Shown in pieces: positions 16,178 through 42,516 of a stretch of DNA of 64,000 nt (its first letter is position 1; every line of letters starts with the position of its first letter). The notes below the pieces were generated by a model. It saw only the letters and a list, made by a program, of their open reading frames with translations, did no database searches and was not told the origin of the DNA. The position numbers and the translations under genes are program-made. Source of the DNA: Candidatus Omnitrophota bacterium (lineage in GTDB: Bacteria > Omnitrophota > Omnitrophia > Omnitrophales > Aquincolibacteriaceae). The stretch lies in assembly GCA_043821445.1 (NCBI GenBank), contig JBDRCT010000013.1, forward strand, positions 82,149-146,148, in the 5' to 3' direction.

Positions 16178-16293
16178 AAACTAGTACGGGGTACGGAGTA
16201 CGGCGTCTCGCGTTCTTTTTTCATGTGCGCCGCACACCTTCCGCCTCTCGCAGTTTTCCGGACTTCAAGTCCAATGACCGGTTCGCAATTCAT
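16174..16293 (-). CDS. 39-codon bridging ORF whose first 11 codons are a diverged duplicate of the gatB start (MNCEPVIGLEV...)
   Basis: ATG overlaps the TGA of the 341-aa ORF (ATGA) and its TGA overlaps the gatB ATG (ATGA); 28/33 nt identical to gatB 5' end, 4 of 5 substitutions synonymous. Confidence 0.4.
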   Translation of the reverse strand: MNCEPVIGLEVRKTARGGRCAAHMKKERETPYSVPRTSL

Positions 16294-24555: not shown

Positions 24556-24765
24556 CTACTCAGGCCGGGAACAGCAACTGCCCTTGACGCCGAACTTCTT
24601 CAGGATGATCTCGGCAAGGCACCAGCCGGTAAACGCGGACTGAACGAGATTTACGCCGATGAGCGTGGTCCAGATCAGCCACCAAGGGCTTACCCAGATC
24701 GCGAGCGCGACGCTCATGAGAATAAAAGTCCCCGCGATGATACGAATGTATTTTTCCATGGTCAT
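24556..24765 (-). CDS. DUF2892 (YgaP-like) small membrane protein
   Basis: 69 aa, RIIAGTFILMSVALAIW...GWCLAEIILKKFG. Confidence 0.55.
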   Translation of the reverse strand: MTMEKYIRIIAGTFILMSVALAIWVSPWWLIWTTLIGVNLVQSAFTGWCLAEIILKKFGVKGSCCSRPE

Positions 24766-24780: not shown

Positions 24781-24863
24781 TCAACGTGCGACGCGCAACG
24801 CGCAACGTTTTTTTACTTGGTTTTTTACGTTGTGCGTTGCCCGTTGAGCGTTGCGCTTTTTTT
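24781..24863. repeat. CAACG/CGTTG-rich palindromic element, copy 2; right arm encodes the last 11 aa + stop of the RND pump
   Basis: tcaacgtgcgacgcgcaacgcgcaacg-tttttttacttggtttttta-cgttgtgcgttgcccgttgagcgttgcgc-ttttttt. Confidence 0.5.
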
Positions 24864-27800
24864 AGCCATCATGTAATAAAAGACAGGTACGGCTGTGCGC
24901 GAAAGAAGGGTCGACGCAATTTCTCCTGCCATCAAAGCCACCGCCAATCCCTGAAAGATCGGATCGAACAGGATCACGGAAGCTCCGACCACCACCGCCG
25001 CGGCGGTCAGAAGCATGGGCCGGAACCGTTGCACGCCCGCTTCGATCACCGCTTCTTCAAGCGGCATACCGTCCGCGCGTTTCAATTCGATAAAATCCAC
25101 CAGGATAATAGAATTACGGACCACGATCCCTGCACCCGCGATCATCCCGATCATCGACGTCGCGGTAAAGAACACACCTCCGAGCCAGTGTGCCGGCAAA
25201 ATGCCGATCAGCGTGAGCGGGATCGGTAGCATAATGATCCACGGCGTCTTGAACGACTGGAACCAGCCGACCACCAGGACGTAGATCAAAAGCAGAACAA
25301 ACGCAAATGCTATCCCCAGATCGCGGAACACTTCGAAGGTGATCTGCCACTCCCCGTCCCACTTGAGGGTCCAACGGTCTGTCGCGGACGGCTGGCCGTT
25401 GAAAAGCTGATCGAGCGTTTTCTGGCCTTCATGGTTTTCCGGTGCCGGCATCTTCGCGATATTCTTTTTGAGTTTCAGGATCGCGTAAGCCGGGCTCTCG
25501 AATTTGCCTCCCACGTCCGCGATCACATAGGAAACCCGCATGAGATTTTTGTGATAGATCGCACGGTCCTTGAACCTATCCTGGATCTCCACAAGATCTT
25601 TAATCGGGATAGGGCTCCCGTAACGAGAAAGAAGCGTCATGTTGAGCACAGCATCCAGCGTCTTCCTTTTCTCCTCCGGCAACCTCACCAGGATCTCGAC
25701 CGGCTCATATTCACCGGAGAGATGCGCAAGATCCACGGCCTTTCCCCCGATCGCGGTCGTGATGGCCTCCGCGATGTGTGTCACAGGAATACCGTTCAGG
25801 GAAGCTTTTTGAGTGTTCACTTTCAGACTTGCCAGTTTTTCCTCGGCCTGAACATAGGTGTCGATGTCGGTGATATCTTTATCCTCGGAAAGCATTTTTT
25901 CGATCCGGCCAGTAAGCTCATTCTGTCCTTCCTGGGTCGGACCATAGACCTCAAGAACAAGGGTCGAAAGCACCGGCGGCCCCGGCGGAACCTCGGCTAC
26001 TTGAACGTGCCCGCCATATTTTTTCACGATTTCATGGACTTTCGGCCGCACGGCTTTGGCGATATCATGACTTTGACGCTTACGGTCATGCTTGCCCGCC
26101 AAATTCACCTGAAGGTCCGCTTGGTGCGGTTTGGAGCGCAGGAAATAATGACGCACGAGCCCGTTAAAGTTATAAGGGGCCGCCGTCCCCACGTACATTT
26201 CAATGTCCTTCACCTCCGGGACCGTGACCAGATAATCCGCGATCTCCGTGATCGCAGCCTGAGTCCGGGCCTTGGGCGTTCCTTCCGGCATATTGAGGAC
26301 CACTTGGAACTCATTTTTATTATCAAAGGGAAGCATTTTCATCCGGACAAGTTTCAAGGGCACCAGCATCACGACTGCTAAAAGAAGGATCCCCAGCGCC
26401 CAAAGGAATTTTTTACGGATCTTCGGGTTATGGATCAAAGGATTCATGTATGAGCGGTAAAGACGCGTCAGGAAATCCTCTTTTTCGCCTTCATGATGGA
26501 CCTTGAGCTTGCCCTGAGCGAACGCCCGGCCCAGGATCTGATAAGCGGCCCACGGTGTCGCCACGAACGCCACGAACATCGAGAACATCATGGCTGCGCT
26601 CGCCCCAATCGGAATGGGGCGCATATAGGGTCCCATAAGACCGCGCACGAAGGCCATAGGAAGGATCGCCGCGATCACCGTGAGCGTCGCGAGGATCAAA
26701 GGGCTCCGGACTTCGTTGACGGCCTCGATCGTGACATCCAGGATGTTCTTGCCCTTGTTCTCAGGCATCCGGAGATGACGGACAATGTTCTCTACGTCCA
26801 CGATCGGGTCATCGACCAGGATCCCGATGGAAAATATAAGCGCAAAAAGTGTGATGCGGTTCAGCGTAAACCCGAGAAAATAGAACGTCGCAAGCGTGAG
26901 CGCGAGCGTCATCGGGATCGCGATCGCCACCACGCCCGCCTCCCGGCTCCCGAGCGCCCAGGCGATCAAGAGACTGACCCCGAATACCGCGATCCCCATA
27001 TGAAACAAAAGTTCGTTGGATTTTTCCTTGGCCGTTTCGCCGTAGTCACGTGTCACGGTCATCTGGACGTCCTTGGGAATCACTGCTTCGGGTATTTTTT
27101 TGATCGTATGGAGGATCACGTCCGACAAATGAGCGGCGTTCGCTCCCTTGCGCTTGGAAATGGCGAGCGTCACCGCATCGAAGGGCCCCTTTTTTTGATC
27201 CTTGGCGGCCGGGCCAAAAAGGATCTGCGTCGAGCGTTCTTCCTGATCGGGACCGTCCACAATTTGCGCGATATCCTTAAGCATTACGATGTTTCCGGCG
27301 TTCACTCCGACCACAAGGTTTTCAAGGTCCGACTTTGTTTTGAAGAAAGAGTTCGCCTCCACCGATTCCAGCGCCGGTTCGCTTTCCAAATGGCCGGCAT
27401 TCTGTTTCACATTTGCGGCGCGTATCAACTGCCCGATCTCAAGAGGATTCAAAAGCCTCGCTTTTAATTCTTCCTCATCAAAAAAGACCTGAAATTGCCG
27501 CTTGCGACCACCCGTGATGTGCGTTCTCGAAACTTCGGGAATCGCATTCACGATATTTTGAAGATGGGCCACGGTCCTGCGTAGCGCCATCGGGTCCTGC
27601 TTTTCACTATGGAACGTAAGCGTCAGGATGGGCACGTCGTCGATCGATCGGACTTTGATGAGCGGCTGCGTCGCACCCTCGGGAAGAAAATCGAGATTGG
27701 AATGGACCTTGGTGTAGAGCTTGATCAGGCTTCTTTCGACATCTTCCCCCACTTTGAACCGGACAATGATCAGTGCGCCTTCGGGCTCGATCGTGGAATA

Positions 27801-28064
27801 GATGTACTCCACGCCCGGGATCTCCCAAAGTTTCCGTTCCCCGAGATTCACGATCCTTTGCTCGACTTCTTTGGAATCCGCGCCGGGATAAGAGACGAAA
27901 ATATCGAACATCGGCACCGAGATCTGGGGTTCTTCTTCGCGGGGAAGGTTCATGACCGCAAAAAGTCCGATGATGAACGACGCCGCGATAATCAGCGGTG
28001 TGATCTTCGACTTCGCGAAGTAGCTGACAGTACTGCTGATCAAGTCGGAGTGGTGGGTTTTCAT
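24825..28064 (-). CDS. RND efflux transporter permease (AcrB/CzcA superfamily)
   Basis: 1079 aa, 12-TM RND architecture. Confidence 0.9.
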   Translation of the reverse strand: MKTHHSDLISSTVSYFAKSKITPLIIAASFIIGLFAVMNLPREEEPQISVPMFDIFVSYPGADSKEVEQRIVNLGERKLWEIPGVEYIYSTIEPEGALIIVRFKVGEDVERSLIKLYTKVHSNLDFLPEGATQPLIKVRSIDDVPILTLTFHSEKQDPMALRRTVAHLQNIVNAIPEVSRTHITGGRKRQFQVFFDEEELKARLLNPLEIGQLIRAANVKQNAGHLESEPALESVEANSFFKTKSDLENLVVGVNAGNIVMLKDIAQIVDGPDQEERSTQILFGPAAKDQKKGPFDAVTLAISKRKGANAAHLSDVILHTIKKIPEAVIPKDVQMTVTRDYGETAKEKSNELLFHMGIAVFGVSLLIAWALGSREAGVVAIAIPMTLALTLATFYFLGFTLNRITLFALIFSIGILVDDPIVDVENIVRHLRMPENKGKNILDVTIEAVNEVRSPLILATLTVIAAILPMAFVRGLMGPYMRPIPIGASAAMMFSMFVAFVATPWAAYQILGRAFAQGKLKVHHEGEKEDFLTRLYRSYMNPLIHNPKIRKKFLWALGILLLAVVMLVPLKLVRMKMLPFDNKNEFQVVLNMPEGTPKARTQAAITEIADYLVTVPEVKDIEMYVGTAAPYNFNGLVRHYFLRSKPHQADLQVNLAGKHDRKRQSHDIAKAVRPKVHEIVKKYGGHVQVAEVPPGPPVLSTLVLEVYGPTQEGQNELTGRIEKMLSEDKDITDIDTYVQAEEKLASLKVNTQKASLNGIPVTHIAEAITTAIGGKAVDLAHLSGEYEPVEILVRLPEEKRKTLDAVLNMTLLSRYGSPIPIKDLVEIQDRFKDRAIYHKNLMRVSYVIADVGGKFESPAYAILKLKKNIAKMPAPENHEGQKTLDQLFNGQPSATDRWTLKWDGEWQITFEVFRDLGIAFAFVLLLIYVLVVGWFQSFKTPWIIMLPIPLTLIGILPAHWLGGVFFTATSMIGMIAGAGIVVRNSIILVDFIELKRADGMPLEEAVIEAGVQRFRPMLLTAAAVVVGASVILFDPIFQGLAVALMAGEIASTLLSRTAVPVFYYMMAKKSATLNGQRTT

Positions 28065-29464
28065 GACGCCCTTCCCTTCAAGCGGGTATTTACTAAGCGG
28101 ATCCCGTTCTCATCCAGCTGACCGGAAAGAAAAAGCAGCTTTGCGTATTCCACTTCTAAGCCGAAAAGAACCTGTGTAAGTTCTGTCATTGTGGAAAGAT
28201 AAGCACGGCGCATTTCGAGAAGATTCGCGATGGATTTGCGCCCTTCTTGATAGAGTTTGGCGGTAAGATTGCTCGCCTGTTCGGCGTCCTTCGAAGCTTG
28301 TTTCAGCACCGGAAGGTCCATGATGACGGTTTCAAACCGTGTCAACTCACCGGCGAGCCCTTTGGCGATCTCATCACGCAGAGCCTGCCGGTCCGCTTTC
28401 AATTCTTCATAACGATGTTTGGCTCCCTTAATACGGCCGGGAAGGGTCGGATCAAAAAGGTCCATGGTCCCTTTGAACCCCACCGAAAAATCCTGACCGC
28501 CTGTATGCCAATCCGGGGTATGTTCATTAAGGCTCCCAAAACCATAAAACTTCGGGAGAAAAGAAGTCTTCTGCCGAAGGGTTTCAATGCGCTGAGCGTC
28601 GATCATTTGATCCATGGCCGCAAGGTCCTTGCGCTCCTGATAAGCCTTCGCGATCCAGGCCCGAACCTCGCCTTTGTCCTGCACATACTCCGGCAATTTC
28701 CCAGCCGGCTCCCAAATCATTTCCAGGTCTTCGCCCATAAGAATATTCATGAGCATTCTGGAGCTTTTCAACATCGCCTGAGCCCTGTTCCTTTCGCGTT
28801 CGATCCCGGCCGCGATGACCTTTGCGGCATAAAAATCCGCTCCCAAGATCAGGCCTTTCTGATTCAGGTCCTCGGCTTGCTTAAGATCCTTGTCGCTTTG
28901 ATCTTTCATAGCGGCAGTCACTGTAAGAATTTCTTTCGCAAGCAAAATACCCAGGTAGCTCTCAAGCGTCACGATCCCGGCTTCCATCTCAGTAAAATCC
29001 GCTTCGAGGTCCGCGCTTTTGACGAGCCGGCGCGCGGAACGGATCTTGGAGATCGTGTTGAAGGAATCAAAAAGCAGCATCTCCCCTTGCAGCCCGAAGT
29101 GATAGTCCGTGCGGTGGCGAGGATTGTTGAGCTCGCTTAACACAAAATCGTTTTGTGTGAATTTGTTCTGCTGCAGGAGCATGCCAAACACGCCGACCGG
29201 ATCATTGGTGGTCGTCATGGACGCCACGCCTTGGATGTGAGGAAAAAGATCGGCGATGGCAATGTTCCGACCTGCCTTCGCTTGTTCAAGTTGTTCGTAT
29301 CTTTTCTTTAAGGCGGGATAATGCGCCAAAACCTTCCCGTAACAGTCGAGAAAGGTCAGAGCCTCGAACCCCGCCTGCTGCGTCGGCAACCCGGTCTCCT
29401 GCGCAGACACGACCGGAATGGTCAAAAAACAGAGCGCCAAAAAAAAGATGGGTATTTTTTTCAT
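28061..29464 (-). CDS. Outer membrane efflux protein (TolC-like OMF)
   Basis: Signal peptide MKKIPIFFLALCFLTIPVVSA, two OEP repeats; stop overlaps RND start; no periplasmic adaptor gene adjacent. Confidence 0.8.
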   Translation of the reverse strand: MKKIPIFFLALCFLTIPVVSAQETGLPTQQAGFEALTFLDCYGKVLAHYPALKKRYEQLEQAKAGRNIAIADLFPHIQGVASMTTTNDPVGVFGMLLQQNKFTQNDFVLSELNNPRHRTDYHFGLQGEMLLFDSFNTISKIRSARRLVKSADLEADFTEMEAGIVTLESYLGILLAKEILTVTAAMKDQSDKDLKQAEDLNQKGLILGADFYAAKVIAAGIERERNRAQAMLKSSRMLMNILMGEDLEMIWEPAGKLPEYVQDKGEVRAWIAKAYQERKDLAAMDQMIDAQRIETLRQKTSFLPKFYGFGSLNEHTPDWHTGGQDFSVGFKGTMDLFDPTLPGRIKGAKHRYEELKADRQALRDEIAKGLAGELTRFETVIMDLPVLKQASKDAEQASNLTAKLYQEGRKSIANLLEMRRAYLSTMTELTQVLFGLEVEYAKLLFLSGQLDENGIRLVNTRLKGRAS

Positions 29465-29496
29465 AACATTAACTTTCATTTTAGAAGAAATACTCT

Positions 29497-30543
29497 TCAG
29501 TTGCCATAGTATTTCCGTTTGAACCAAAGCGCCACACTCACGAGGCCGATCAGTACCGGCACTTCCACGAGTGGGCCGATCACCGCTGCGAACGCGACCC
29601 CGGAGTGGATGCCGAACACCGCGACCGCTACCGCGATAGCAAGCTCGAAATTGTTGCTTGCGGCGGTAAAGGACAGCGTGGCAGACTGGCCGTAAGAAGC
29701 GCCTATTTTTTTACTCATAAAAAAAGAGATCAAGAACATGACGACGAAATAAACGAGGAGCGGAATTGCGATCCGCACGACATCCATCGGGATCTTCACG
29801 ATATATTCCCCTTTCATGGAGAACATTACGGCGATCGTAAATAAAAGCGCGGCAAGCGTGATGGGGCTGATCGCCGGAATAAATCTTGTCTCATACCAGG
29901 TTTTGTCTTTGATCTTGAGAAGGACGAATCGCGTCAGCATCCCTGCAAGAAATGGGATGCCGAGATAGATAAAAACGCTTTTGGCGATTTGACCGATTGT
30001 GATGTCCACCACCGCACCGTGCAAACCGAACCAGCGCGGCAGGACCGTGATGAAGACCCATGCGTAAAGGGAGAAAAAAAGCACCTGGAAGATCGAGTTG
30101 AACGCCACGAGCCCCGCACAGTATTCCGTATCCCCTTCGGCCAAGTCGTTCCAGACAATGACCATCGCAATGCAGCGAGCGAGGCCGATCATGATGAGCC
30201 CGATCATGTATTCCGGATAGCCGCGCAGAAACGTGATCGCCAGCACGAACATCAAAATGGGACCGATCACCCAGTTCTGGACGAGGGACAGCAGCAGGAC
30301 TTTCGTGTTCTTGAACACATCACCGAGCTCTTCATATTTCACTTTGGCGAGAGGAGGATACATCATCAAAATGAGCCCTATGGCGATCGGAATATTGGTC
30401 GTGCCCACCTGGAACTTGTTCCAGAATCCCACGACCGGCGGATAAAGATACCCCGCCGCGACACCGATCCCCATGCTGAGAAAGATCCAAAGTGTCAAAA
30501 ACCGGTCTAAAAATGACAGCTGCTTCTTATGACATTCGCTCAT
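29497..30543 (-). CDS. acr3: Arsenite efflux transporter, ACR3 family
   Basis: [13 protein letters not shown]...; 10-TM Acr3; start MSECHKK (30543). Confidence 0.85.
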
Positions 30544-31238
30544 AAGTTCCCTCCTTGGAGCCAATAAGCCCAGACGTAATAAATACCCGCGCCGATGAAG
30601 ATCACGCCTGTCATCTTGCGCGTATAAAGTTCGATCTTGGTCAACCTGTGGAACCAATGGCTCAAAGATGTCACGCCAAGAGCTATCGCCACGGCAAACG
30701 CCAACACAGGCAGGCCGGTGCCAATTCCATAAATGAACGGCAGGAGTGCGCCCACCGGATGATTAAGCGCCAAAGGAATGAGACTTCCGAAAAAAAGCGC
30801 CGCAGACACGGGACAGAACGCGAGAGCGAAAATAAAACCGAGCAGAAAAGCTCCAGGCGCACCGGACTCGGCGAGTTTATTGTGATGCTTTTGGGAAAGA
30901 GAAAGGCCGGGCAAGCGGACAGTCATGATCTCAAGAAGCAGCAATCCCGTTACGATCAAAAGCGGTCCTAGCACCTTCCCCATGTATCTCTGGAGAAATA
31001 GAGCGGTCTGCGGGACGCTCACAAGAGAATGTATAATGATCCATCCCAGGACGGCGTAGGAGACCACTCTTCCGAACGTATACGCCAAACCCGAAATGAA
31101 AACGGCAGCCGGATGCGCGATCTTTTTTGACAGAAAAGAGACCGCCGCGATGTTCGAGGCCAAAGGACAGGGACTGATCGAGGTTAGAATCCCCAGCCAA
31201 AGCGCAGAAAACCAGCCGACCCAGAATTGATCCATCAC
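30540..31238 (-). CDS. Cytochrome c biogenesis CcdA / DsbD transmembrane-domain protein
   Basis: [12 protein letters not shown] ... [12 protein letters not shown] (paired TM Cys). Confidence 0.75.
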
Positions 31239-31669
31239 GCCTCCTTCAGGAAGGCGGCGACTTCATCCCGCACATAATTCTCGTACCGGTCTTTATTGCG
31301 AACATATTCCCAGATCTTGTCGAGGTTCTTGGAACGGATTTCTTTGCCATCTTTTGTGAGAGAGAGAATAACGGATTTGGTGTAGAGCTGATAATCCTTC
31401 GCAAAATGCTCGTTGCCCTTACTCTCGACATTCACGACCCTAAACGCGAGCTTCCCGGAAGCCAAAGCTTCCTTAAAATTACTCTCAATGGCCTCTTGGG
31501 CATACTGCTCCAATTTTTTGCAAGTCGGACAACGAAAAGTTCCGTGAAAATAATAAGCTGTGACAACACCGCCTGCGGACACTTCCTCGGCCATGACAGG
31601 AGAAGTCCCGAAGCATAAATGACTTGCCAGTGCAACAGCTATCAGCAAAAGGAGAGTGTGTTTTTTCAT
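31235..31669 (-). CDS. Secreted thioredoxin-like protein
   Basis: Signal peptide, CPTC motif. Confidence 0.6.
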   Translation of the reverse strand: MKKHTLLLLIAVALASHLCFGTSPVMAEEVSAGGVVTAYYFHGTFRCPTCKKLEQYAQEAIESNFKEALASGKLAFRVVNVESKGNEHFAKDYQLYTKSVILSLTKDGKEIRSKNLDKIWEYVRNKDRYENYVRDEVAAFLKEA

Positions 31670-31678
31670 GGGTCCCTT

Positions 31679-31912
31679 TTATTTCGCAAGGATCTTTTTG
31701 ATCTCGTTTGTGTTTAACAGCTTTCCCGTCGAAACCACCGTGCCGTCGACCACCACGGCAGGAGTCATCATTACGCCATAGCCGGTAATCGCATCGATGT
31801 CTGTCACCTTAACGATCTCAGCCTGAATGTTAAGCTCCTTAACCGCCGCTTCCGCGTTCGCGGTAAGTTGTTCGCATTTCGGACAACCTGTTCCAAGAAT
31901 TTCTATTTTCAC
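31679..31912 (-). CDS. Small thioredoxin-fold redox-active disulfide protein
   Basis: MKIEILGTGCPKCEQL...; 77 aa, common in ars operons. Confidence 0.7.
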   Translation of the reverse strand: MKIEILGTGCPKCEQLTANAEAAVKELNIQAEIVKVTDIDAITGYGVMMTPAVVVDGTVVSTGKLLNTNEIKKILAK

Positions 31913-32712
31913 AGCCCACCTCCGGTGTTTTTTTCTTTTACAGCTGAAACTTTGATGCTAGCTACTGTGCCTTCAGCATTTCTGAGATCTTCGAACATCG
32001 TATCCACGGGATAACTTGCTTCGCTGATCACCTTAACATTCTGGAATCCCGCCACTTCGATGCACCTCAAATATTGATCCTTTTTGATCGCCCCGGCAAG
32101 GCACCCTACATAAGCATTGATCGATTCTTTCAGAGCCTTCGGCAGTTCCCGAGTCAGCACCAGATCGGAAACCATCAGCCTACCCCCGGGTTTTAACACC
32201 CTAAAAGCCTCTTTAAAGACTTTCTCTTTTTCCGGAGAGAGGTTAATGACGCAATTGGAGATAATGAGATCCACGGACTGATCTTCAACGGGAAGCACTT
32301 CGATCTCGCCCAAACGGAACTCCACGTTCTCATACTCCCCTTTCCCGGCATTTTCTTTGGCCTTCGCAATCATTTCGGGCGTCATATCAACACCGATCAC
32401 GCGGCCGGCTTTACCGACCTTCTTCGCCGCAAGAAAAACATCGAATCCGGCCCCACAACCAAGATCCAGCACCACATCGCCCTCTTTAATAGCCGCAAAA
32501 GCTACGGGATTGCCGCACCCGAATCCCAAATTCGCGCCTTTGGGAACCGCATTTATGTCTGTATCGCTATACCCGATCTTTTCGCTTATCGCCTTTGCCT
32601 GACTTACGTTTCCGCAGCACGAACCGGACGAACAACACCCGATATGCTGTTCAAGAGCCTTGGCATAACCCTTGCGGACTATTTTTTTTATTTTGTCAGT
32701 GCTTTTTCCCAT
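31909..32712 (-). CDS. arsM: Arsenite S-adenosylmethionine methyltransferase ArsM
   Basis: N-terminal CC/CC Cys pairs (IGCCSSGSCCG), SAM motif VLDLGCGAGFD, C-terminal Cys. Confidence 0.8.
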   Translation of the reverse strand: MGKSTDKIKKIVRKGYAKALEQHIGCCSSGSCCGNVSQAKAISEKIGYSDTDINAVPKGANLGFGCGNPVAFAAIKEGDVVLDLGCGAGFDVFLAAKKVGKAGRVIGVDMTPEMIAKAKENAGKGEYENVEFRLGEIEVLPVEDQSVDLIISNCVINLSPEKEKVFKEAFRVLKPGGRLMVSDLVLTRELPKALKESINAYVGCLAGAIKKDQYLRCIEVAGFQNVKVISEASYPVDTMFEDLRNAEGTVASIKVSAVKEKNTGGGL

Positions 32713-32721: not shown

Positions 32722-33894
32722 CTAAATAACAATAGCGCCGAAAATCATGCCGCTAATCGTTGCCATCACTACGACGAGACAGACATAAACGGCGGTCTTT
32801 TTGGTTCCGATCACACTGCGAATCACGAGCATGCTGGGAAGGCTCAACGCAGGCCCCGCAAGAAGAAGCGCCAATGCGGGACCTTTCCCCATTCCGGAAC
32901 CGATGAGACCTTGGAGAATAGGCACTTCGGTCAGCGTGGCGAAATACATGAACGCCGCGACGATGGATGAAAAGAAATTGGCTCTCAAGGAGTTTCCGCC
33001 CACCAGGGCCGCTACATATTTCGAGGGAATGACACCTTCGTGCCCCACCCGCCCAAGCAAGAAACCGGAGATCAGGACACCTCCCAAAAGAAGCGGTAGA
33101 ATTTGAAGCGCGAAAGTCCAGGAGGCAGAGGTCCATTCCTTCAGTTCTTCTTTTTCGAACCACTTAATGAGCATGATCGCAAGCACGGCCAGGGAAATCC
33201 CGGAGATCCACCACCTATATTGGTAGATCAGGGCCCACGTTCCATGATCTCCTTCAAGGGGCTTGCCCCAATTCGCAAAAACAAGAAACGCGATCATCGA
33301 AAAAAAATAAAGGACCGTTTTGCCTAAGGACCGTGTTTCTTTGACCTCTCCTACATTAAAATCACCGCTTACCTGACGCGCTTGTTCTTCTTTGAGAAAG
33401 ATAAAATGCATCAAGAGCCCGATCACGACGCTAAAGATCACAGCCCCCACAGCTCTTGCCAATCCGAGCTGCCAGCCGAGAATACGGGCTGTCAGGATGA
33501 TCGCAAGAACGTTGATGGCAGGACCCGAATAAAGAAAGGCTATCGCCGGGCCGAGGCCCGATCCCCTTTTATAGATCCCCGAAAAAAGCGGCAGAACGGT
33601 GCAAGAACAGACGGCCAAGATCGTTCCCGAAACCGAGGCAACGCTGTAAGAAAGAAATTTATTGGCTTTGGCTCCGAAGCATTTCATGACGGATGCTTGG
33701 CTGACGAACACAGAAATGGCACCGGCAATAAAAAACGCCGGAACAAGGCAAAGGATCACGTGCTCACGAGCATACCATTTGACAAGAGCGAGAGCTTCAA
33801 AGATAGCGTTCGTGAAACGAAGATTTTCGACCGGAAGATAAAAACACGCTAAAAATCCTGCTAAGACATAAAGAACTTTTTTCCATTCATTCAT
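32722..33894 (-). CDS. arsP: DUF318-type permease, ArsP-like (organoarsenical efflux)
   Basis: Two-repeat permease; AVCSCTVLP resembles the ArsP TPFCSC motif; ars context. Confidence 0.6.
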   Translation of the reverse strand: MNEWKKVLYVLAGFLACFYLPVENLRFTNAIFEALALVKWYAREHVILCLVPAFFIAGAISVFVSQASVMKCFGAKANKFLSYSVASVSGTILAVCSCTVLPLFSGIYKRGSGLGPAIAFLYSGPAINVLAIILTARILGWQLGLARAVGAVIFSVVIGLLMHFIFLKEEQARQVSGDFNVGEVKETRSLGKTVLYFFSMIAFLVFANWGKPLEGDHGTWALIYQYRWWISGISLAVLAIMLIKWFEKEELKEWTSASWTFALQILPLLLGGVLISGFLLGRVGHEGVIPSKYVAALVGGNSLRANFFSSIVAAFMYFATLTEVPILQGLIGSGMGKGPALALLLAGPALSLPSMLVIRSVIGTKKTAVYVCLVVVMATISGMIFGAIVI

Positions 33895-34196
33895 GATTTA
33901 CTCCTTCGAACGGCCTGGCAGCAGCCCCCTTCGATTTTAATGCCATGGTGGTGGACAAGGGCGTTCGCGATTTTTTTTCGAGCTGCGGTCAGAATGCGGG
34001 AAACTGTGGAGCGATGCACTTTCATTTTCCGGGCGGCGGCGTCCTGCTCAAGACGCTTACCATCGCAAAGCCACAGGGCCTCAAGTTCATCCAAAGTGAT
34101 CTTCGTTACAATAATATCCTTGCATGGAACATGGACCGGGCGGAAACACCGGTCCCCCGGCTTACAGCCAACGTATCTTGTTTTCTTAGGACGCAT
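33891..34196 (-). CDS. DUF134 (UPF0251) predicted DNA-binding protein, paralog 1; first gene of the ars/efflux operon
   Basis: MRPKKTRYVGCKPGDRCFRPVHVPC...LDELEALWLCDGKRLEQDAAARKMKVHRSTVSRILTAARKKIANAL; Cys-rich N-term + sigma-r4-like HTH. Confidence 0.8.
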   Translation of the reverse strand: MRPKKTRYVGCKPGDRCFRPVHVPCKDIIVTKITLDELEALWLCDGKRLEQDAAARKMKVHRSTVSRILTAARKKIANALVHHHGIKIEGGCCQAVRRSKS

Positions 34197-34208
34197 AGAA
34201 CACCTTAG

Positions 34209-34228
34209 TTATGCACATATGTGCATAA
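34209..34228. promoter_or_regulatory. Perfect 20-nt palindrome TTATGCACATATGTGCATAA 13 nt upstream of the DUF134-1 start (candidate operator)
   Basis: 15/20 positions identical to the palindrome upstream of DUF134-2 (38366-38385); consensus TTATnnnCATATGnnnATAA. Confidence 0.5.
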
Positions 34229-34273
34229 TACAAGGGCAAGATGATTTGTCAAATATTTTTGAAATTTAAAAGG

Positions 34274-35188
34274 TCAGGTTAGGAATGCGACGCTGAAAAT
34301 GCCGGATGTGGTCTGGGTCTTGTTGCTCCCAAGAACATCCTGCTGGACGCCCAGTTCAAACCGCAAATGATCGCCCAGTGGCATAATGACGCCCAGCACC
34401 AAGCTCACCAGATTGGCGGTCTGTCCTTGCCCTGCGAAATCGTGCAGATAGATCAATTCGGCTTCCGGCTGCAACCACCAGAACACCTGATAGCCTGCCG
34501 CGAAATTCGCGTGTGCCGTCCCATAATAATGATTCGTCCGCTCCCAATGCGCGAGCGGAGCATTGTAACCCAGATTCACGGTCCCGTTCCACCGGCCGAT
34601 GTCTTTGGTGAACGCGAAGGAGTTATCCAGGCTGGTGTAACCCTGGCTGGCGCCGAGGTGATCGAGATTGCTGCGCCGTCCGGTGGGAATGAAGATCGTG
34701 GGCATATACGCGATCTCGAGTTTCTTCTCTGCGGAATCATAGAAACGCCACTTGCCAGCCACGCCGAGATCGCCCCAGCCGAACCCGTGCGAAGGCCCCT
34801 CGGTCTCATCTTCCAGTCTCTCCCCCGTATCCGGGTCCGACAGATCCCTGAACTCATCATAGTTGTTCTCTTTGTCCAAAGTATGCTGGAACCAATTGAT
34901 GATCCCGACATCGATATCTTTATAGACCCCGACCGTTACCTGGCTTTCCCATACCTGGGCCAGATAAGTTCCCCGGTTCTCTCTCGCGCCGTTCGACTTC
35001 CAGGCGAATTTGCCTCCCTGGAGCACATAAGAGCCCCACACCTCGACTTGCCCGGGATCATTTGGCGTGGCATCCGTGGTCACGACTTTGGAATGTTCCT
35101 CGATCGCCAGATTGTCCGCAACGTGCGTCGCGTAAAGAGGGCTTGAAACGGTAAGCAGCAAGCATAGAAAAAGAAGGTTTCGCGTCAT
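34274..35188 (-). CDS. Outer-membrane beta-barrel-like protein, paralog 1 (last gene of the fur-feoAB operon)
   Basis: Signal peptide MTRNLLFLCLLLTVSSPLYA, conserved TGRRSNLDHLG, C-terminal ...SVAFLT; 48% identical paralog at 41570-42511. Confidence 0.55.
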   Translation of the reverse strand: MTRNLLFLCLLLTVSSPLYATHVADNLAIEEHSKVVTTDATPNDPGQVEVWGSYVLQGGKFAWKSNGARENRGTYLAQVWESQVTVGVYKDIDVGIINWFQHTLDKENNYDEFRDLSDPDTGERLEDETEGPSHGFGWGDLGVAGKWRFYDSAEKKLEIAYMPTIFIPTGRRSNLDHLGASQGYTSLDNSFAFTKDIGRWNGTVNLGYNAPLAHWERTNHYYGTAHANFAAGYQVFWWLQPEAELIYLHDFAGQGQTANLVSLVLGVIMPLGDHLRFELGVQQDVLGSNKTQTTSGIFSVAFLT

Positions 35189-35358
35189 GTTTTTTCCTCC
35201 GGTTTTGAGGTGCTGTCTTTTTTTTCTAATTTTTGCCTGCCCGCGGGCAGGCAATCGGGGCCGCAGCGCCCTCCGCCCTTTTTGCCAAAAAAACAACGTA
35301 GCGCAAGAAGAGCCGCCAATGCCACAACGCTTAATGCAATGGTCTCATTAGTTTCCAT
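35185..35358 (-). CDS. FeoB-associated Cys-rich small membrane protein (57 aa; not in ORF track)
   Basis: METNETIALSVVALAALLALRCFFGKKGGGRCGPDCLPAGRQ...; one TM + Cys cluster; AGAGGA SD; TGA overlaps barrel ATG. Confidence 0.45.
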   Translation of the reverse strand: METNETIALSVVALAALLALRCFFGKKGGGRCGPDCLPAGRQKLEKKDSTSKPEEKT

Positions 35359-37605: not shown

Positions 37606-37849
37606 ATTCCGCCTTTTGAACAAGTATTTTTGAGGCGTCCTGCTTCCGGATCGAGAGGCTGTACCCCCGGAGCACGACCTCCATGGGGTCGCCCAGCGGC
37701 GCAAAACGCTTCACCAGGATCCTCGTGCCATGGACGAGGCCGAGCTCTTTAAGCCGGTAGTGGAGGTCTTCTTCTCCTTGGTAGCCCTGGACAACACCCC
37801 ACTCCCCGGCTTTCAATTGATCGAGAGTGATGCGATTCATTTCCGGCAT
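37589..37849 (-). CDS. feoA: FeoA
   Basis: SH3-like FeoA: LDQLKAGEWGVV...LKELGLVHGTRILV. Confidence 0.8.
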   Translation of the reverse strand: MPEMNRITLDQLKAGEWGVVQGYQGEEDLHYRLKELGLVHGTRILVKRFAPLGDPMEVVLRGYSLSIRKQDASKILVQKAEYDDGK

Positions 37850-38265
37850 TTTTTGCAAAGCCCCACAAGTTGATGACAATGGTGCTCCAATTTAAAACGG
37901 TACTTTTCCGCAACGCGGCGTTGCGCCTTCTCGATCTGGGGGTCCTTGAACTCCACGATCTTCTCACACTCGCGGCAGATCAAGTGATCGTGGTGGGCCT
38001 TGAAATACCCGCATTCATAATAAGTGTCGCGACTCGTCCGGAAACTTTGCGCGACCACACCTGCCTCAAGAAGGATCGGAAGATTCCGGTAGACCGTGTC
38101 CCGCGAGACCTTCAGCCCTTGCTTCTTCAGACAGGAAACAAGGATATCCACGTTGAAATGCCCGCGCTGATGCCTGATCCCCTCGATCAGTTTGAGCCGT
38201 TCCCCCGTCAGACGGCATCCTTTGCCTCGGATAAACCCTTCGAATTCTTTTTGATTTTTGATCAC
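37837..38265 (-). CDS. fur: Fur family transcriptional regulator
   Basis: HHDHLICRECEKIVEF, CxxC pairs; GTG start. Confidence 0.8.
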   Translation of the reverse strand: MIKNQKEFEGFIRGKGCRLTGERLKLIEGIRHQRGHFNVDILVSCLKKQGLKVSRDTVYRNLPILLEAGVVAQSFRTSRDTYYECGYFKAHHDHLICRECEKIVEFKDPQIEKAQRRVAEKYRFKLEHHCHQLVGLCKKCRK

Positions 38266-38282
38266 GGAGAGAGGATCCTCTT

Positions 38283-38338
38283 ATTAAGATTAAGTCTGAA
38301 TAAGCGGGAGTGTAGCGGAAGGACCGCGGTATGTCAAC
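38283..38338 (-). promoter_or_regulatory. Candidate fur-feoAB promoter (-35 TTGACA / 17 / -10 TACACT) with tandem ATTAAG hexamers downstream (Fur-box-like)
   Basis: attaagattaag at 38283-38294 between -10 and the GTG start. Confidence 0.3.
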
Positions 38339-38340
38339 GC

Positions 38341-38385
38341 TTGACAAAGATACACCTCTTGACTATTATTGGCATATGCTAATAA
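38341..38385 (+). promoter_or_regulatory. Promoter of the DUF134-2 operon: -35 TTGACA / 17 / -10 TATTAT overlapped by the palindrome TTATTGGCATATGCTAATAA
   Basis: Divergent from fur; palindrome 38366-38385 matches the DUF134-1 operator. Confidence 0.5.
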
Positions 38386-38400
38386 CCTCTGAAGAAGCCC

Positions 38401-38703
38401 ATGCCAAGACCTTTTAAATGTAGACGCGTTTGCGGAACGCCCGGAACAGACTATTTTAAGCCCAGAGGTATTCCTCTCTCCAATCTCCAGGAAATCGGCC
38501 TAACGATTGATGAGTTTGAAGCGATCCGCCTTGCGGACTTGGAAGGCCTTTACCAGGAGGACGCCGCCAAGAAAATGGACATCTCCCGTCAGACATTCGG
38601 AAACATCATTGCGTCCGCTCATAAGAAGATCGCAGATGCCATTGTGAATGGTAAAGCCCTTAAAATCTCGGAAAACAAAGATATTAAGGAAACACAGACA
38701 TGA
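38401..38703 (+). CDS. DUF134 (UPF0251) predicted DNA-binding protein, paralog 2
   Basis: MPRPFKCRRVCGTPGTDYFKPRGIP...IDEFEAIRLADLEGLYQEDAAKKMDISRQTFGNIIASAHKKIADAIV. Confidence 0.8.
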   Translation: MPRPFKCRRVCGTPGTDYFKPRGIPLSNLQEIGLTIDEFEAIRLADLEGLYQEDAAKKMDISRQTFGNIIASAHKKIADAIVNGKALKISENKDIKETQT

Positions 38704-38873
38704 TAAAGATCGAAGGAAAACTGTGCAACGGCTGTGGAATCTGCAAAGAAATTTGCCCAGTAGACGGGATCAAGATTATAGACGGTAAGGCTGTAGCTAA
38801 TGAACAATGCATTGATTGCGGGACCTGCATCGCATCCTGTGCGTCCGGAGCGATCTCTCCGGCTGAAAATTGA
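38700..38873 (+). CDS. 4Fe-4S ferredoxin (57 aa; not in ORF track)
   Basis: MIKIEGKLCNGCGICKEICPVDGIKII...CIDCGTCIASCASGAI; two CxxCxxCxxxCP motifs; ATG overlaps DUF134-2 TGA. Confidence 0.7.
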   Translation: MIKIEGKLCNGCGICKEICPVDGIKIIDGKAVANEQCIDCGTCIASCASGAISPAEN

Positions 38874-38886
38874 TCCGGTATTGATT

Positions 38887-39480
38887 ATGGACTCAGTGCT
38901 GCTGTCACTCAGGAAAAGGACAAGGCAGTTCAAGCGATACGGCTACGACCTCCCTGCCTCCCGCCGGTTCATCTGGAAACTATCAGGTATTTGTCACGGG
39001 GAAGTCCTCGAAATCGGAACCGGCAAGGGGCATTTGACCGCCCTGCTGGCCCAGAAAGGTCTCAAGATCATCTCGGTCGATCTTGATGGAGAGGTTCTCA
39101 AGACCGCAAAAACTCACCTGTCCGCGCTAAAACTCAGTAAACGCGTTTCGCTCCGGAAGATGAATGCGGAAAGACTCCGGTTCAAGTCAAGGAGTTTTGA
39201 CAACGTGATCTCCATAGATTTTTTTCATCACGCCCGAAACCCGCTCCGTTGCCTCCGGGAAATGATGCGAGTAACTCGAAAGACCTTAACAATCGCGGAT
39301 TTGAACCAAAACGGTATGCGGATCATGGACCTTGTTCATAAAAGTGAAGGAAAGAGACACGAAACCCCCAAGATCCCATTTGGAGACCTAAAAAAGCATT
39401 TTCTCGCACATCATTTTAACGTCAAAAGTTATCGTCACCCATGCCACCAAATTTTTGTGGCGCAAAGGAGGAGTTCATGA
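38887..39480 (+). CDS. Class I SAM-dependent methyltransferase
   Basis: VLEIGTGKGHLTALLA motif I; start MDSVLL (track ORF begins earlier, overlapping the ferredoxin). Confidence 0.7.
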   Translation: MDSVLLSLRKRTRQFKRYGYDLPASRRFIWKLSGICHGEVLEIGTGKGHLTALLAQKGLKIISVDLDGEVLKTAKTHLSALKLSKRVSLRKMNAERLRFKSRSFDNVISIDFFHHARNPLRCLREMMRVTRKTLTIADLNQNGMRIMDLVHKSEGKRHETPKIPFGDLKKHFLAHHFNVKSYRHPCHQIFVAQRRSS

Positions 39481-39842
39481 AGATCTGCATCCCCACAACA
39501 ACCAAAGACGGAAAGTCCGCCCAAGTTTACGAACATTTCGGAAGTGCGCCTTTTTTTACTATTTGTGATTCAGATAAAAACACTATCGAGATCATCGACA
39601 ACGCAAACCAGCACCACTCCCACGGCATGTGCCAGCCCATGAGCGCGCTCGTCGGAAAAGAAATCGATGCGGTCGTTACCGGAGGCATGGGAGCCAGAGC
39701 TGTCCAGAAACTGAACGAAGGCAGGATCAAAGTCTACCGCGCCATCCCCGGAACTGTCGAAAATATCTTGAAGCAATTTTCAAAAGGTGGTCTTCAGGAA
39801 CTGACTATTGAGAATGCCTGCGCTCAACACGGGTGCCATTAA
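39477..39842 (+). CDS. NifB/NifX-type dinitrogenase FeMo-cofactor-binding domain protein
   Basis: MKICIPTTTKDGKSAQVYEHFGSAPFFTICD...AVVTGGMGARA; ATG overlaps methyltransferase TGA. Confidence 0.7.
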   Translation: MKICIPTTTKDGKSAQVYEHFGSAPFFTICDSDKNTIEIIDNANQHHSHGMCQPMSALVGKEIDAVVTGGMGARAVQKLNEGRIKVYRAIPGTVENILKQFSKGGLQELTIENACAQHGCH

Positions 39843-39875
39843 ACATTCCGGTGTGAGGATCTGTAGACTAAACAT

Positions 39876-40343
39876 ATGCGACAAACCCAAGAAAAGCTTA
39901 AATCATTACAAAGCCGTTTTCATGCGGCCTGCGTAGTTTGCGGAAGAGAAAATCCTCAAGGCATGAAATTGCCTTTTCACACCTGCAAGGACGGCTCGGT
40001 CAAAGCATGGTTCTTCTGCGATCAGCTTTTGCAGGGATATCCCGGATTGATGCATGGTGGCGTGATCGCGGCGATCCTCGACGGAGCGATGATGAATTGC
40101 CTTTTTGCCCAGGGTAGAATAGCCGTGACAGGGGTTTTGACGGTTTGTTTTGTGTCCCCCCTTGCCGTAAAACAGACTGCGACCGTCCGGGCACGGGTGA
40201 AAAAATCTATTTCCTCGTGTCATATCTTGGAATCAGAACTCTTGCAAGGCAGGCGCACCGTTGCGAAAGCGACGGCCAAATTCATGGAATGCACGGAACA
40301 TTTTCTCAGACAACATAAAATAGCGGAGGAGGAAAGAAAATGA
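39876..40343 (+). CDS. PaaI-family hotdog thioesterase
   Basis: LMHGGVIAAILDGAMMNC. Confidence 0.65.
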   Translation: MRQTQEKLKSLQSRFHAACVVCGRENPQGMKLPFHTCKDGSVKAWFFCDQLLQGYPGLMHGGVIAAILDGAMMNCLFAQGRIAVTGVLTVCFVSPLAVKQTATVRARVKKSISSCHILESELLQGRRTVAKATAKFMECTEHFLRQHKIAEEERK

Positions 40344-40513
40344 ACTTGTGGATCCGGCTGCTGGCCTTTGTGTGTGAAATCTGCCCTTTATGTATCACGG
40401 CGAGGTGTTTCCCAAATTCCAAATTCGCCGCGAGCATGAAGCGACTAGAAAAGTTTTGCCCTTTTTGCAGCGCCCACGAAAAGTTAAAACAAGATAACGA
40501 AAAATCTCAATAA
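40340..40513 (+). CDS. Cys-rich 57-aa peptide (CxxCPxC...CPFC), not in ORF track
   Basis: MNLWIRLLAFVCEICPLCITARCFPNSKFAASMKRLEKFCPFCSAHEKLKQDNEKSQ; GGAGGAGGAAAG SD; ATG overlaps thioesterase TGA. Confidence 0.4.
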   Translation: MNLWIRLLAFVCEICPLCITARCFPNSKFAASMKRLEKFCPFCSAHEKLKQDNEKSQ

Positions 40514-40516
40514 ATC

Positions 40517-40861
40517 ATGAAAGAGACGGCTAAAGCTTATTTTTTAGGAAAAAAAGGATCCCGCAGGCTGAATTGCGCTCAATCGGTGGCTGAGACATTC
40601 CGGGAGAAATACCCTCTGGACGAGAAAAAAACGACTATTCTCTCCGCATGCGGTGGGGGCATGGCCCCGGAGGGATACTGCGGCGCGTTTTACGCAGCAA
40701 AATGCCTTCTGGACTATCATTCCCCCCATCGCACCCAAGAAAGCATGGCGCAGCTTCATTCTGCCGCAGGCTCCCTCAAATGCCGGGAGATCAAAGCTTT
40801 AAAAAAACTGCCGTGCGTCGGCTGCGTTGAAAAAGCCGCGGAAGTGGTCGAAGAAAAATGA
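40517..40861 (+). CDS. C_GCAxxG_C_C family redox protein
   Basis: LNCAQSVAETF ... CGGGMAPEGYCGAFYAAKC. Confidence 0.75.
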   Translation: MKETAKAYFLGKKGSRRLNCAQSVAETFREKYPLDEKKTTILSACGGGMAPEGYCGAFYAAKCLLDYHSPHRTQESMAQLHSAAGSLKCREIKALKKLPCVGCVEKAAEVVEEK

Positions 40862-41565
40862 AAATTCGGCTTATTGCCGAAGGCTCAACAAGACGCGAAC
40901 GAAAGATCCTCCGGTGGGGCCTGGCCTTTCTTGTCGGGAACGTTCTCTTTGACACCTTCGGCCGGAAAGATATTTTTAAAAGAAACATCAGGCGCTTCGG
41001 GATTGATCTGTCCCGCGTCAAACATGTCGTGATCTCACATGAAGACTGGGACCACATCGCCGGGCTTGAGAATTTTCTTAAAACTCATCCTAAAACACCT
41101 GTTTATGTCTGCAGGAAATCCGGTAACGCGTTAAGAAAAATAATCCGCAGCAACGGCGGCTCACTTATCGAAGTCGACAAACCCCGAAAGATAAGCCGCA
41201 ATATTTTCTCTCTCGGTCAAATGCGGGCCGATACAGGCCGAGGCATTCTTTATGAGCAGGCTCTCGTTGTGAAGTCGCGACATGGTTTTTCCGTGATCAC
41301 GGGCTGCGCCCACCCAGGGATCTTCCGGATCATCAGACAGGCCATCAAGATATTCGGGAATAAAATTTACACCATTTGCGGCGGATTCCACATGAAGGAC
41401 AATACGCAGGAAGAGAATTAAAAAATCATCGAAAAACTTCAAGCGCTCGGCATTAAAAAGGTCATCCCCCTCCACTGCACTGGCGCAACTGCCCGCCGAT
41501 TATTCCAAAAAACCTACGAAAGGAATTTTGTGACCTTACGCGAAGGCAATACGCTTACCCTCTAA
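40858..41565 (+). pseudogene. MBL-fold metallo-hydrolase interrupted by an in-frame TAA (41419-41421)
   Basis: ISHEDWDHIAGL ... GGFHMKDNTQEEN*KIIEKLQALGIKKVIPLHCTGATA: the C-terminal PxHCTG motif continues in frame after the stop. Confidence 0.6.
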
Positions 41566-41569
41566 ACGG

Positions 41570-42511
41570 TCAGGTCGCGAAGGCGACTCGAAAGATACCT
41601 GTGGTAAGCTGGTCTTGATTGCTGCCCAGGACGTCCTGCTGAACGCCGAGGTCGAAGCGGAGATGATCGCCCGCCGGAATGATCGCGCCCGCTACCACAC
41701 TCACAAGCTTTCCGCCTTTGCCGGGGTTTTCAAAACTATGGTTATAAATAACCTCCATCTGAGGGTGAAGCCAGGAAAGCAACTGGTAACCCGCCGCCGC
41801 ATTAAAATTCCAGGTGCCGCGGTAGTTCCCCGTTTTTTTCGAATTCGCAAGCGGTACGTTGTAACCCGTGTTCAAAGTCCAGCAGAACCGTTTGTATTCC
41901 TGGGTGTAGATCAGATTGTTCGCAAAACTTACATAACCCGCCCCCGGCCCCAGATGATCAAGATTGCTGCGTCGGCCCGTCGGCAAATAGACCGTCGGGC
42001 TATAAGCCAGTTCGAATTTTTTCTCCTTATTCTCGTAAAACCGCCAACGACCCATAACCCCAAGGTCCCCGCGGCCGCCTCCGTGTGTCGGCCCGCCGAT
42101 CGTATCTTCCATTGCCTCGCCGGTCAACGGATCGATCTCGTCGGCGACTTCATTATCATTATTGTTTTTGTCGAAAAGATGATAAAAGCTCTGGAAGATC
42201 GCCATATCAATGTCCTTATAGAGTCCGATATAGGTCTCGACATCCCAAGCGTGAGTGAGATAGGTTCCCCGGTGATAACGCTCTGCATCCGTTTGCCAAG
42301 CGAATTTCCCGCCACGAAGCGAATAGGCAAGATCGACCTCGACATGGCCGGGATCCGTAGGTGTAGCATCTAAGGTCAGCAGCTTGGAATGGCATGCTTC
42401 TGTTTCTTCCTCATTTTGAATGGCAGGATCAACACGTATTTGTTCTGACGCTAGGGCAACGGATGTGAAAACTACGCTAAAAAAAAAGATGGGGAAAAAT
42501 CGCGCCTTCAT
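41570..42511 (-). CDS. Outer-membrane beta-barrel-like protein, paralog 2 (downstream of nikMN-nikR)
   Basis: Signal peptide MKARFFPIFFFSVVFTSVALA, TGRRSNLDHLG, ...RVAFAT. Confidence 0.55.
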   Translation of the reverse strand: MKARFFPIFFFSVVFTSVALASEQIRVDPAIQNEEETEACHSKLLTLDATPTDPGHVEVDLAYSLRGGKFAWQTDAERYHRGTYLTHAWDVETYIGLYKDIDMAIFQSFYHLFDKNNNDNEVADEIDPLTGEAMEDTIGGPTHGGGRGDLGVMGRWRFYENKEKKFELAYSPTVYLPTGRRSNLDHLGPGAGYVSFANNLIYTQEYKRFCWTLNTGYNVPLANSKKTGNYRGTWNFNAAAGYQLLSWLHPQMEVIYNHSFENPGKGGKLVSVVAGAIIPAGDHLRFDLGVQQDVLGSNQDQLTTGIFRVAFAT

Positions 42512-42516
42512 AGTCG

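Follow-up and report, generated by a model that had tools for sequence, protein, structure and literature searches.

A DUF134 protein with a conserved palindromic operator as the predicted arsenic-responsive repressor of an Omnitrophota ars operon

Introduction

Bacterial arsenic regulation is taught as ArsR/SmtB biology. Characterized ArsR proteins bind As(III) with three sulfur ligands (S3 sites), which arose at different positions and in many cases comprise a vicinal cysteine pair, e.g., C95/C96/C102 in AfArsR and C15/C16/C55 in CgArsR (PMC11868830). The current study deals with a 64-kb stretch of DNA from a Candidatus Omnitrophota bacterium (GenBank assembly GCA_043821445.1, contig JBDRCT010000013.1, positions 82,149 to 146,148 of the forward strand; hereafter the window), which carries a minus-strand string of arsenic resistance (ars) genes in the order DUF134, arsP, arsM, arsE, arsF, arsG, and acr3, followed by the genes of a TolC-like outer-membrane factor (OMF) and an RND permease. 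The first gene encodes, as the first-pass annotation of the window had stated, a small cysteine-rich helix-turn-helix (HTH) protein of the DUF134/UPF0251 family (33891..34196, minus strand; 101 amino acids; PF02001, 67.3 bits, cutoff 27), and this protein is predicted to be the repressor of the operon.

The locus shares several traits with those of R773 ArsR, AfArsR, and CgArsR, namely, a small, presumably autoregulated first gene of an ars operon, a palindromic operator in the promoter, and a presumed derepression by As(III). As in AfArsR and CgArsR (PMC11868830), at least three cysteines are kept, with a vicinal pair located in a flexible terminal segment. In contrast to ArsR, the DUF134 protein is nonhomologous and lacks the HTH_5/HTH_20 winged helix, carrying instead a three-helix HTH of the sigma-70 region 4/SorC type on a small sheet, and its operator has a different sequence. 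The HTH is like that of SorC/DeoR regulators and of sigma-70 region 4, but the protein has neither the sugar-binding effector domain of the former nor a sigma region 2. ArsD, a metallochaperone and weak trans-acting repressor that takes part in ars regulation, also binds As(III) via vicinal cysteine pairs; ArsD has a thioredoxin-like fold and no HTH, homology is not expected, and the resemblance is confined to cysteine chemistry. On these comparisons, the system is rated as ArsR-like in function and DUF134 by membership, i.e., as an arsenic repressor-operator switch apparently rebuilt on an unrelated, uncharacterized scaffold. Literature searches on DUF134, UPF0251, COG1342, and PF02001 found no functional study (the matches were other DUF134x numbers or passing table entries), and those on arsEFG and on Omnitrophota and arsenic found no paper on DUF134 function.

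Results and Discussion

A palindrome over the -10 box of the ars promoter

The perfect palindrome that the first-pass annotation had reported upstream of the DUF134 start codon was confirmed. The fully self-complementary 20-bp sequence TTATGCACATATGTGCATAA (34209..34228) ends 12 nt short of the ATG at 34196, with its last base at -13, and its designation as an operator is based on sequence, conservation, and exact metagenomic copies. It lies within a predicted sigma-70-type promoter (34225..34252, minus strand) consisting of TTGACA (34252..34247), a 16-nt spacer, and TATTAT (34230..34225), which matches the consensus at 11 of 12 positions. The palindrome begins with the four bases that close the -10 hexamer and also extends over the predicted transcription start. 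The minus-strand intergenic region reads TTGACA-16 nt-TATTATGCACATATGTGCATAA-CTAAGGTGTTCT-ATG. Between the operator and the ATG, a ribosome-binding site, AAGGTG (34201..34206, minus strand), was read from the sequence.

A promoter scan of the region from 22.5 to 39 kb returned as its top two sites, each with 11 of 12 consensus matches, the promoter of the ars DUF134 gene and that of a second DUF134 gene of the window, the paralog at 38401. The same two genes have the only two sites in the 64 kb that match the operator consensus TTATNNNCATATGNNNATAA with at most two mismatches; the chance expectation is 0.08, and two or more matches occurred in none of 100 shuffles. A search for extra targets with ATGCACATATGTGCAT, allowing up to three mismatches, matched only the known site within the window. 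The reading of the palindrome as a hairpin or terminator was rejected, because the sequence, and not mere pairing, is conserved across proteins that are about 50% identical and because it is located inside the promoter.

Conservation of the operator in related genomes

The comparison as a whole comprised more than 130 related loci (numbered with the prefix L). A scan with one genome per species yielded 80 of these loci, mostly from Omnitrophota, with proteins 47 to 88% identical to the query. An operator was called when at least 16 of 20 positions within 150 nt upstream of the gene matched TTATG[C/A]ACATATGT[G/T]CATAA. Loss of the motif in relatives had been named beforehand as the observation that would speak against a regulatory role; the opposite was found, with the same palindrome or a TGAAC or TGCAT variant of it upstream of the orthologue in 76 of the 80 species-level genomes. 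The distance to the start codon is mostly 10 to 19 nt, and in most loci the operator touches or overlaps a TATAAT/TATTAT box that follows a TTGACA element (46 of the 76 sites have a -35 element with at least four of six TTGACA matches at a spacer of 16 to 18 nt). Three of the four genomes below the threshold have recognizable variants, and one has a half-site alone. The site is also specific, as only three more sites with at least 16 of 20 matches are present in the 1.13 Mb of the loci, one of them being the paralog operator in L004.

In the reverse test, the exact 20-mer was sought in metagenome contigs. It was found in 65 loci and lies directly upstream of a DUF134 gene in 55 of them. A further copy (L139) stands at a truncated DUF134 gene at the contig end, and two copies without a DUF134 gene precede neighbors typical of the family, i.e., Mrp/NBP35 (L090) and DUF5320 plus NifX (L122). 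About eight exact copies without a nearby DUF134 gene are located inside longer perfect palindromes that are unrelated (L100, L111/L131, L115/L124, L141, and L123/L149), and these were set aside as chance occurrences or other elements.

Some loci deviate in detail. The genome with the half-site alone (L017, TTGTGCATAA at about 9970..10000) shows this reduction despite a normal HRSTIS helix and downstream ars genes. In L001, L072, L094, L097, L101, and L103, the operator stands 78 to 93 nt before the DUF134 start instead of 10 to 19 nt, which points to a longer leader or another arrangement of the promoter. L069 has a second palindrome of the DUF134 type, TTATGACCATATGTTCATAT (18 of 20 matches; 15482..15501), at a distance of 5.5 kb from the DUF134-ars operon of that genome. 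It stands about 40 nt before an ArsR-family (HTH_5) gene, which is followed by AdoMet_dc and GNAT genes (15542..17317); this arrangement may reflect cross-regulation.

Covariation between recognition helix and operator

The operator variants form symmetric classes, each paired with its own variant of the recognition helix. The protein of the window carries H61-R62-S63-T64-V65. Across the proteins compared, the half-site TGCAC goes with H-R-S-T-[V/I] at positions 61 to 65, TGAAC with S-R-P-T-F, and TGCAT with H-Q-S-T-[I/V]. At base 8 of the half-site, C occurs with R62 in 146 of 146 cases and T with Q62 in 12 of 12, a pattern that agrees with the usual preferences of arginine for G:C and glutamine for A:T. 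At base 6, C is paired with H61/S63/[V,I]65 in 97 of 98 cases and A with S61/P63/F65 in 50 of 52. Where the helix is intermediate (SRSTV or SRSTF; L003, L028, and L061), the operator combines the two kinds of half-site.

Mutual information with the operator class was highest at alignment columns 50, 65, 61, and 63, all of which lie within the predicted HTH, and the helix class predicted the operator class in 78 of 81 proteins, a value reached by none of 2,000 permutations. Outside the HTH, the similarity of the TGAAC class to most TGCAC-class proteins (73%) equals that found among the latter. The clade of the window is only 53% identical to other TGCAC-class proteins, yet helix and operator are kept. 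Because the operator variants covary with the recognition helix, the site is tied to the DUF134 protein rather than to another factor. This is taken as strong comparative evidence for DUF134 as the cognate binder of the palindrome, and it is very probable that the protein binds this site and controls the operon. The resulting code predicts that the exchanges H61S/S63P/V65F would shift the preference to TTATGAACATATGTTCATAA and that R62Q would shift it to TAATGCATATATATGCATTA.

Cysteines and predicted structure

The ars-type protein has cysteines at positions 11, 17, 92, and 93, which are conserved in 79, 75, 78, and 81 of 81 proteins, respectively. All four are present in 70 of the 81 proteins, and the remaining 11 have exactly three, each lacking a different one, while none has fewer than three; this is the pattern expected of three-coordinate binding with one ligand in reserve. 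When 1.84 billion representatives were searched exhaustively, 2,458 family members (clusters at 50% identity) were obtained, of which about seven leading clusters make up the ars-type subfamily. Among the best 150 of the 2,458 representatives, a C-terminal CC was found by regular expression and inspection in only about 10, and the top-scoring CC-bearing representatives that were inspected carry the HRST helix. The Cys11/Cys17...Cys92-Cys93 signature is confined to the arsenic-linked subfamily; it is present neither in the other DUF134 subfamilies nor in the paralog of the window nor in a 151-amino-acid subfamily with a zinc ribbon. Both window proteins are members of DUF134/UPF0251/COG1342 (PF02001) and share its operator architecture, whereas this cysteine signature and the arsenic gene context set the ars-type protein apart from the rest of the family.

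The AlphaFold2 model (mean predicted local distance difference test score, 81.7) shows a single, sigma-70 region 4-like three-helix HTH (residues 35-46, 51-58, and 62-81) packed on a small sheet (strands 16-18, 30-34, and 85-89), followed by a disordered tail (92-101). Cys17 lies in the first strand and Cys92/Cys93 just past the last one. For residues 35 to 80, the best matches in the PDB are the N-terminal HTH of SorC/DeoR proteins (Bacillus subtilis DeoR, 7bhy/8r7y) and sigma-70 region 4, with a root mean square deviation of 0.6 Å over 40 to 49 residues (Foldseek) and a PDB profile E value of 4.5e-6. Neither the profile search nor Foldseek found a full-length relative of DUF134 in the PDB, the HTH alone being aligned. 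In Pfam, the ars-type protein matches DUF134 and, below threshold, HTH_29 (19.7 bits, cutoff 28.1); it has no Pfam match to HTH_5 or HTH_20, and the PDB profile and fold searches returned no ArsR, so that it is not a member of the ArsR/SmtB family. It is likewise not a sigma-70 or extracytoplasmic function sigma factor, as no sigma region 2 is present in the 101 residues and the region 4-like matches stay below their cutoff (TIGR02937, 22 bits, cutoff 43). Sigma70_r4_2 has a subcutoff match on the paralog only, and the NCBIfam model PRK04217 matches only below its cutoff.

Arsenic context of the orthologues

In at least 76 of the 80 loci, a set of arsenic genes begins with the orthologue, and the remaining four contigs end too soon for judging. 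Three different sets are headed in this way: arsP-(arsM)-arsE-arsF-arsG-(acr3), acr3 with or without an LMWPc-type arsC, and arsC with an MIP aquaporin. In accompanying unrelated arsenic genes, the regulator appears to behave as ArsR does in other phyla, and the suggestion of the first-pass annotation that DUF134 stands in the position of ArsR thus holds across the three sets. The window locus itself has the layout of an autoregulated first gene, i.e., an ars operon with the operator at its promoter. The absence of an ArsR gene, also noted earlier, was corroborated by a tblastn search of the window with four ArsR/SmtB-family queries (E ≤ 0.01), which found no homologue and was sensitive enough because the same search found ArsR-like genes in other loci. 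Such genes lie near the DUF134 gene in just 6 of the 80 related loci. In L028, an Rrf2-family regulator gene (6348..6749) directly follows the ArsP_1 permease gene of the DUF134-headed operon.

The paralog and the wider DUF134 family

The second DUF134 gene of the window (38401..38703, plus strand; PF02001, 76.5 bits, cutoff 27) encodes a protein with the helix ISRQTFGNII and without the C-terminal CC. Its operator, TTATTGGCATATGCTAATAA (38366..38385), overlaps the -10 box of the promoter TTGACA-17-TATTAT (38341..38369), which reads TTGACA-17 nt-TATTATTGGCATATGCTAATAA and thus has the same register as that of the ars DUF134 gene. The position over the -10 box had been described correctly before, whereas the reported agreement with the ars palindrome was one position too high (14 of 20 instead of 15 of 20); the paralog palindrome is self-complementary at 18 of 20 positions. 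The gene heads a cluster (region 37837..41421) of methyltransferase, NifX/orange-protein-like, 4HBT, C_GCAxxG_C_C, and MBL genes, in which the NifX-like gene has a match to the C-terminal portion of the Fe-S carrier MrpORP. A Fur gene is oriented divergently to the DUF134 gene, and FeoB lies farther out.

Orthologues of the paralog with the helix ISRQTFGNII were found in three phyla, namely, in Omnitrophota (L002, L004, L010, and L087/88), Sedimentisphaerales (L081-83), and Elusimicrobia (L084-86). All of them keep the operator TTATT[A/G]GCATATGC[C/T]AATAA over the -10 box with a NifX/orange-protein-like gene next, and those of Sedimentisphaerales also have the divergent Fur gene, as in the window. 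The recurrent Fur/DUF134/NifX-like arrangement hints at an iron- or Fe-S-related regulon. The proposal that the DUF134 proteins are the cognate autoregulators of both operons is therefore supported by conservation of the two operators and by the covariation of helix and operator.

A 151-amino-acid subfamily (L102, L112, L117, L120, and L121) has a C-terminal zinc ribbon, the helix ISRSTFSRLV, and no Cys triad. The identical 20-mer TTATGCACATATGTGCATAA stands about 30 nt upstream of its genes (e.g., at 69..88 in L120, with the gene at 119..574), which head nonarsenic clusters with DUF5320, MinD/ParA-Fer4, and NifX-like genes. Most members of the DUF134 family head NifX/orange-protein-like or MinD-Fer4 clusters, and an operator architecture of TTAT-N3-CATATG-N3-ATAA over the -10 box is common to the family, which as a whole seems to be made up of autoregulators sharing this architecture.

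Proposed mechanism

It is shown by comparison that the site is conserved, specific to DUF134 promoters, and covarying with the helix and that the regulator is linked to arsenic genes. In the mechanism proposed here, a DUF134 dimer, predicted because of the operator symmetry, would set its two sigma-70 region 4-like HTH units on the half-sites TTATGCACAT and ATGTGCATAA. With about 9 bp between the cores of the half-sites, successive major grooves would be within reach of the two HTH units. By covering the -10 box and start site of a strong promoter, the bound protein would block RNA polymerase; because of this operator position, repression rather than activation is predicted. Trivalent arsenic, i.e., As(III) and possibly methylarsenite, would be held by three thiolates, for which Cys11/Cys17 of the N-terminal segment and the vicinal pair Cys92-Cys93 of the flexible C-terminal tail are the candidates. 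The arsenic-bound protein would then change and leave the DNA, which would permit transcription of arsP-arsM-arsEFG-acr3 and, in the window, of OMF-RND, and the paralog at 38401 would act likewise on its own operator. The ligand and the role of the cysteines are inferred from the gene context and the subfamily-specific cysteines. We consider it reasonably probable that DUF134 is the dedicated, autoregulated repressor of the operon, which senses As(III) directly through its cysteines and does the job of ArsR on an unrelated fold.

The principal alternative on the ligand side is that DUF134 binds the operator while its cysteines hold a structural zinc ion or an Fe-S cluster and report iron-sulfur, redox, or metal-cofactor status. 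Four conserved cysteines suit such a site, and other subfamilies are Cys-rich at the N terminus (PCKCRRVCG) or have the zinc ribbon, head NifX/orange-protein-like, Mrp/MinD-Fer4, and DUF5320 clusters, and adjoin Fur and FeoB. The explanation is nevertheless unlikely, given that the signature of C11/C17 plus CC occurs solely in the subfamily linked to arsenic, that three-coordinate binding with one cysteine to spare fits the 11 natural three-Cys variants better than does a zinc site or cluster with four ligands, and that the regulator is almost universally associated with one of three unrelated arsenic gene sets. Somewhat less likely is a thiol-disulfide switch, in which cysteine oxidation by oxidative or electrophile stress would release the repressor and arsenic would act indirectly via thiol stress. 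Vicinal cysteines are able to form redox switches, and thiol-redox proteins are encoded in the operon (the thioredoxin-like ArsE and the DsbD_2-type protein) and downstream of it (an AhpC/TSA-like protein), but the same regulator heads acr3-only, acr3-arsC, and arsC-aquaporin operons without redox enzymes beyond ArsC, and the hosts, judged by their source names, are anaerobes of anoxic habitats.

With respect to the DNA, the resemblance of the HTH to sigma-70 region 4 could also suit an activator or a sigma region 4-like accessory factor. This is very improbable for a protein without sigma region 2 whose operator covers the -10 box and start site, and not the -35 box or an upstream position, of a promoter that is near consensus unaided (11 of 12 matches). 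Hardly credible, finally, is a foreign binder of the palindrome, e.g., an ArsR or Fur encoded elsewhere, with DUF134 as a mere passenger in first position. The analysis covers 64 kb of the genome, and in a few related loci (e.g., L005 and L021) an ArsR-like gene adjoins the DUF134 gene; against this stand the covariation of the operator bases with residues of the DUF134 helix, the way in which the site accompanies DUF134 genes across different operon types, subfamilies, and phyla, and the lack of an ArsR in the window and in 74 of the 80 loci. Another factor, be it ArsR or the neighboring Fur, was therefore judged unlikely on the basis of the covariation and of the ArsR search in the window.

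Several points weigh against direct arsenic sensing by DUF134 as the preferred explanation. The whole case is comparative, including binding, induction, and ligand. The covariation is partly confounded by shared ancestry, as the operator classes are clade-like and the counts are thereby inflated, and the suggestion of about 12 independent changes comes from a masked tree built on only some 68 alignment columns. Helix and base do not correspond in a strict one-to-one code, because the 151-amino-acid subfamily with its SRSTF helix uses the identical 20-mer, and the operator alone does not imply arsenic, because this subfamily heads nonarsenic clusters. The four cysteines could also hold zinc or an Fe-S cluster, an ArsR could be encoded elsewhere in the genome, beyond the 64-kb window, and the placement of OMF-RND on the same transcript is inferred from spacing and close-relative synteny only.

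Taking the parts together, we lean toward a view in which DUF134/UPF0251 is a large family of autoregulatory HTH repressors with a TTAT-N3-CATATG-N3-ATAA operator and a readable code (Arg62 with G:C and Gln62 with A:T), one branch of which would have independently evolved a tri-cysteine sensor of As(III)/methylarsenite that replaces ArsR across Omnitrophota and neighboring candidate phyla. If true, a second, nonhomologous class of bacterial arsenic-sensing repressors would exist across a whole candidate phylum, the ArsR/SmtB-centered picture would be widened, and surveys that use ArsR as a marker of regulated ars operons would miss these lineages. It would also be the first concrete, testable function for DUF134/UPF0251 (COG1342) with its approximately 2,458 clusters at 50% identity, for which the analysis yields an operator, a predicted recognition code, and regulon predictions. 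The putative 101-amino-acid sensor and its defined 20-bp operator are a candidate part for arsenic biosensors, and the link to arsM and arsP could help to find a methylarsenite-responsive switch in anaerobes.

Gene content of the operon and its surroundings

The order of the gene string was as described in the first-pass annotation, with the correction that the genes labeled thioredoxin-like and ccdA encode ArsF-family and ArsG-family proteins. All genes are located on the minus strand. The DUF134 protein, which is 100% identical to a protein annotated in a Candidatus Omnitrophota metagenome-assembled genome, is followed by the ArsP_1-family permease (arsP, 32722..33894; Pfam PF03773, E = 7e-77), whose ATG overlaps the DUF134 stop codon by 4 nt. 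Curated ars-gene models passed above their cutoffs for the next five genes, i.e., those of the arsenite methyltransferase ArsM (31909..32712; NCBIfam NF008823, 354 bits, cutoff 263), an MTH895/ArsE-family thioredoxin-like protein (31679..31912; TIGR00412, 105 bits, cutoff 62), an ArsF-family protein (31235..31669; NF040494, 116 bits, cutoff 60), an ArsG-family transporter of the DsbD_2 type (30540..31238; NF040495, 279 bits, cutoff 200), and the ACR3 arsenite efflux transporter (29497..30543; TIGR00832, 456 bits, cutoff 283), for which the ATG at 30543 with an AAGGAGG ribosome-binding site is the likely start. The OMF (28061..29479) was assigned by PF02321 (OEP), with TIGR01844 below its cutoff, and the RND permease (24825..28064; PF00873, E = 3.5e-141) overlaps the OMF stop codon by 4 nt. 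The intergenic gaps, calculated for the start codons judged most plausible, are, in order, -4, 9, -4, 9, -4, -4, about 17, and -4 nt.

By synteny, OMF-RND follows acr3 in the closest relatives only (L001, L002, and L004-L007). Among the open reading frames scanned (24825..29527), no gene of a periplasmic adaptor (MFP) was present between or beside OMF and RND. Beyond the RND gene lie those of a YgaP-like transmembrane protein (24556..24765) and the AhpC/TSA-like protein (23816..24487). The window also has two genes of MetA-pathway-like outer-membrane proteins (Phenol_MetA_deg), one of which (34274..35296) is located directly upstream of the ars promoter, with conserved synteny among close relatives, and the other (41570..42634) beyond the paralog cluster.

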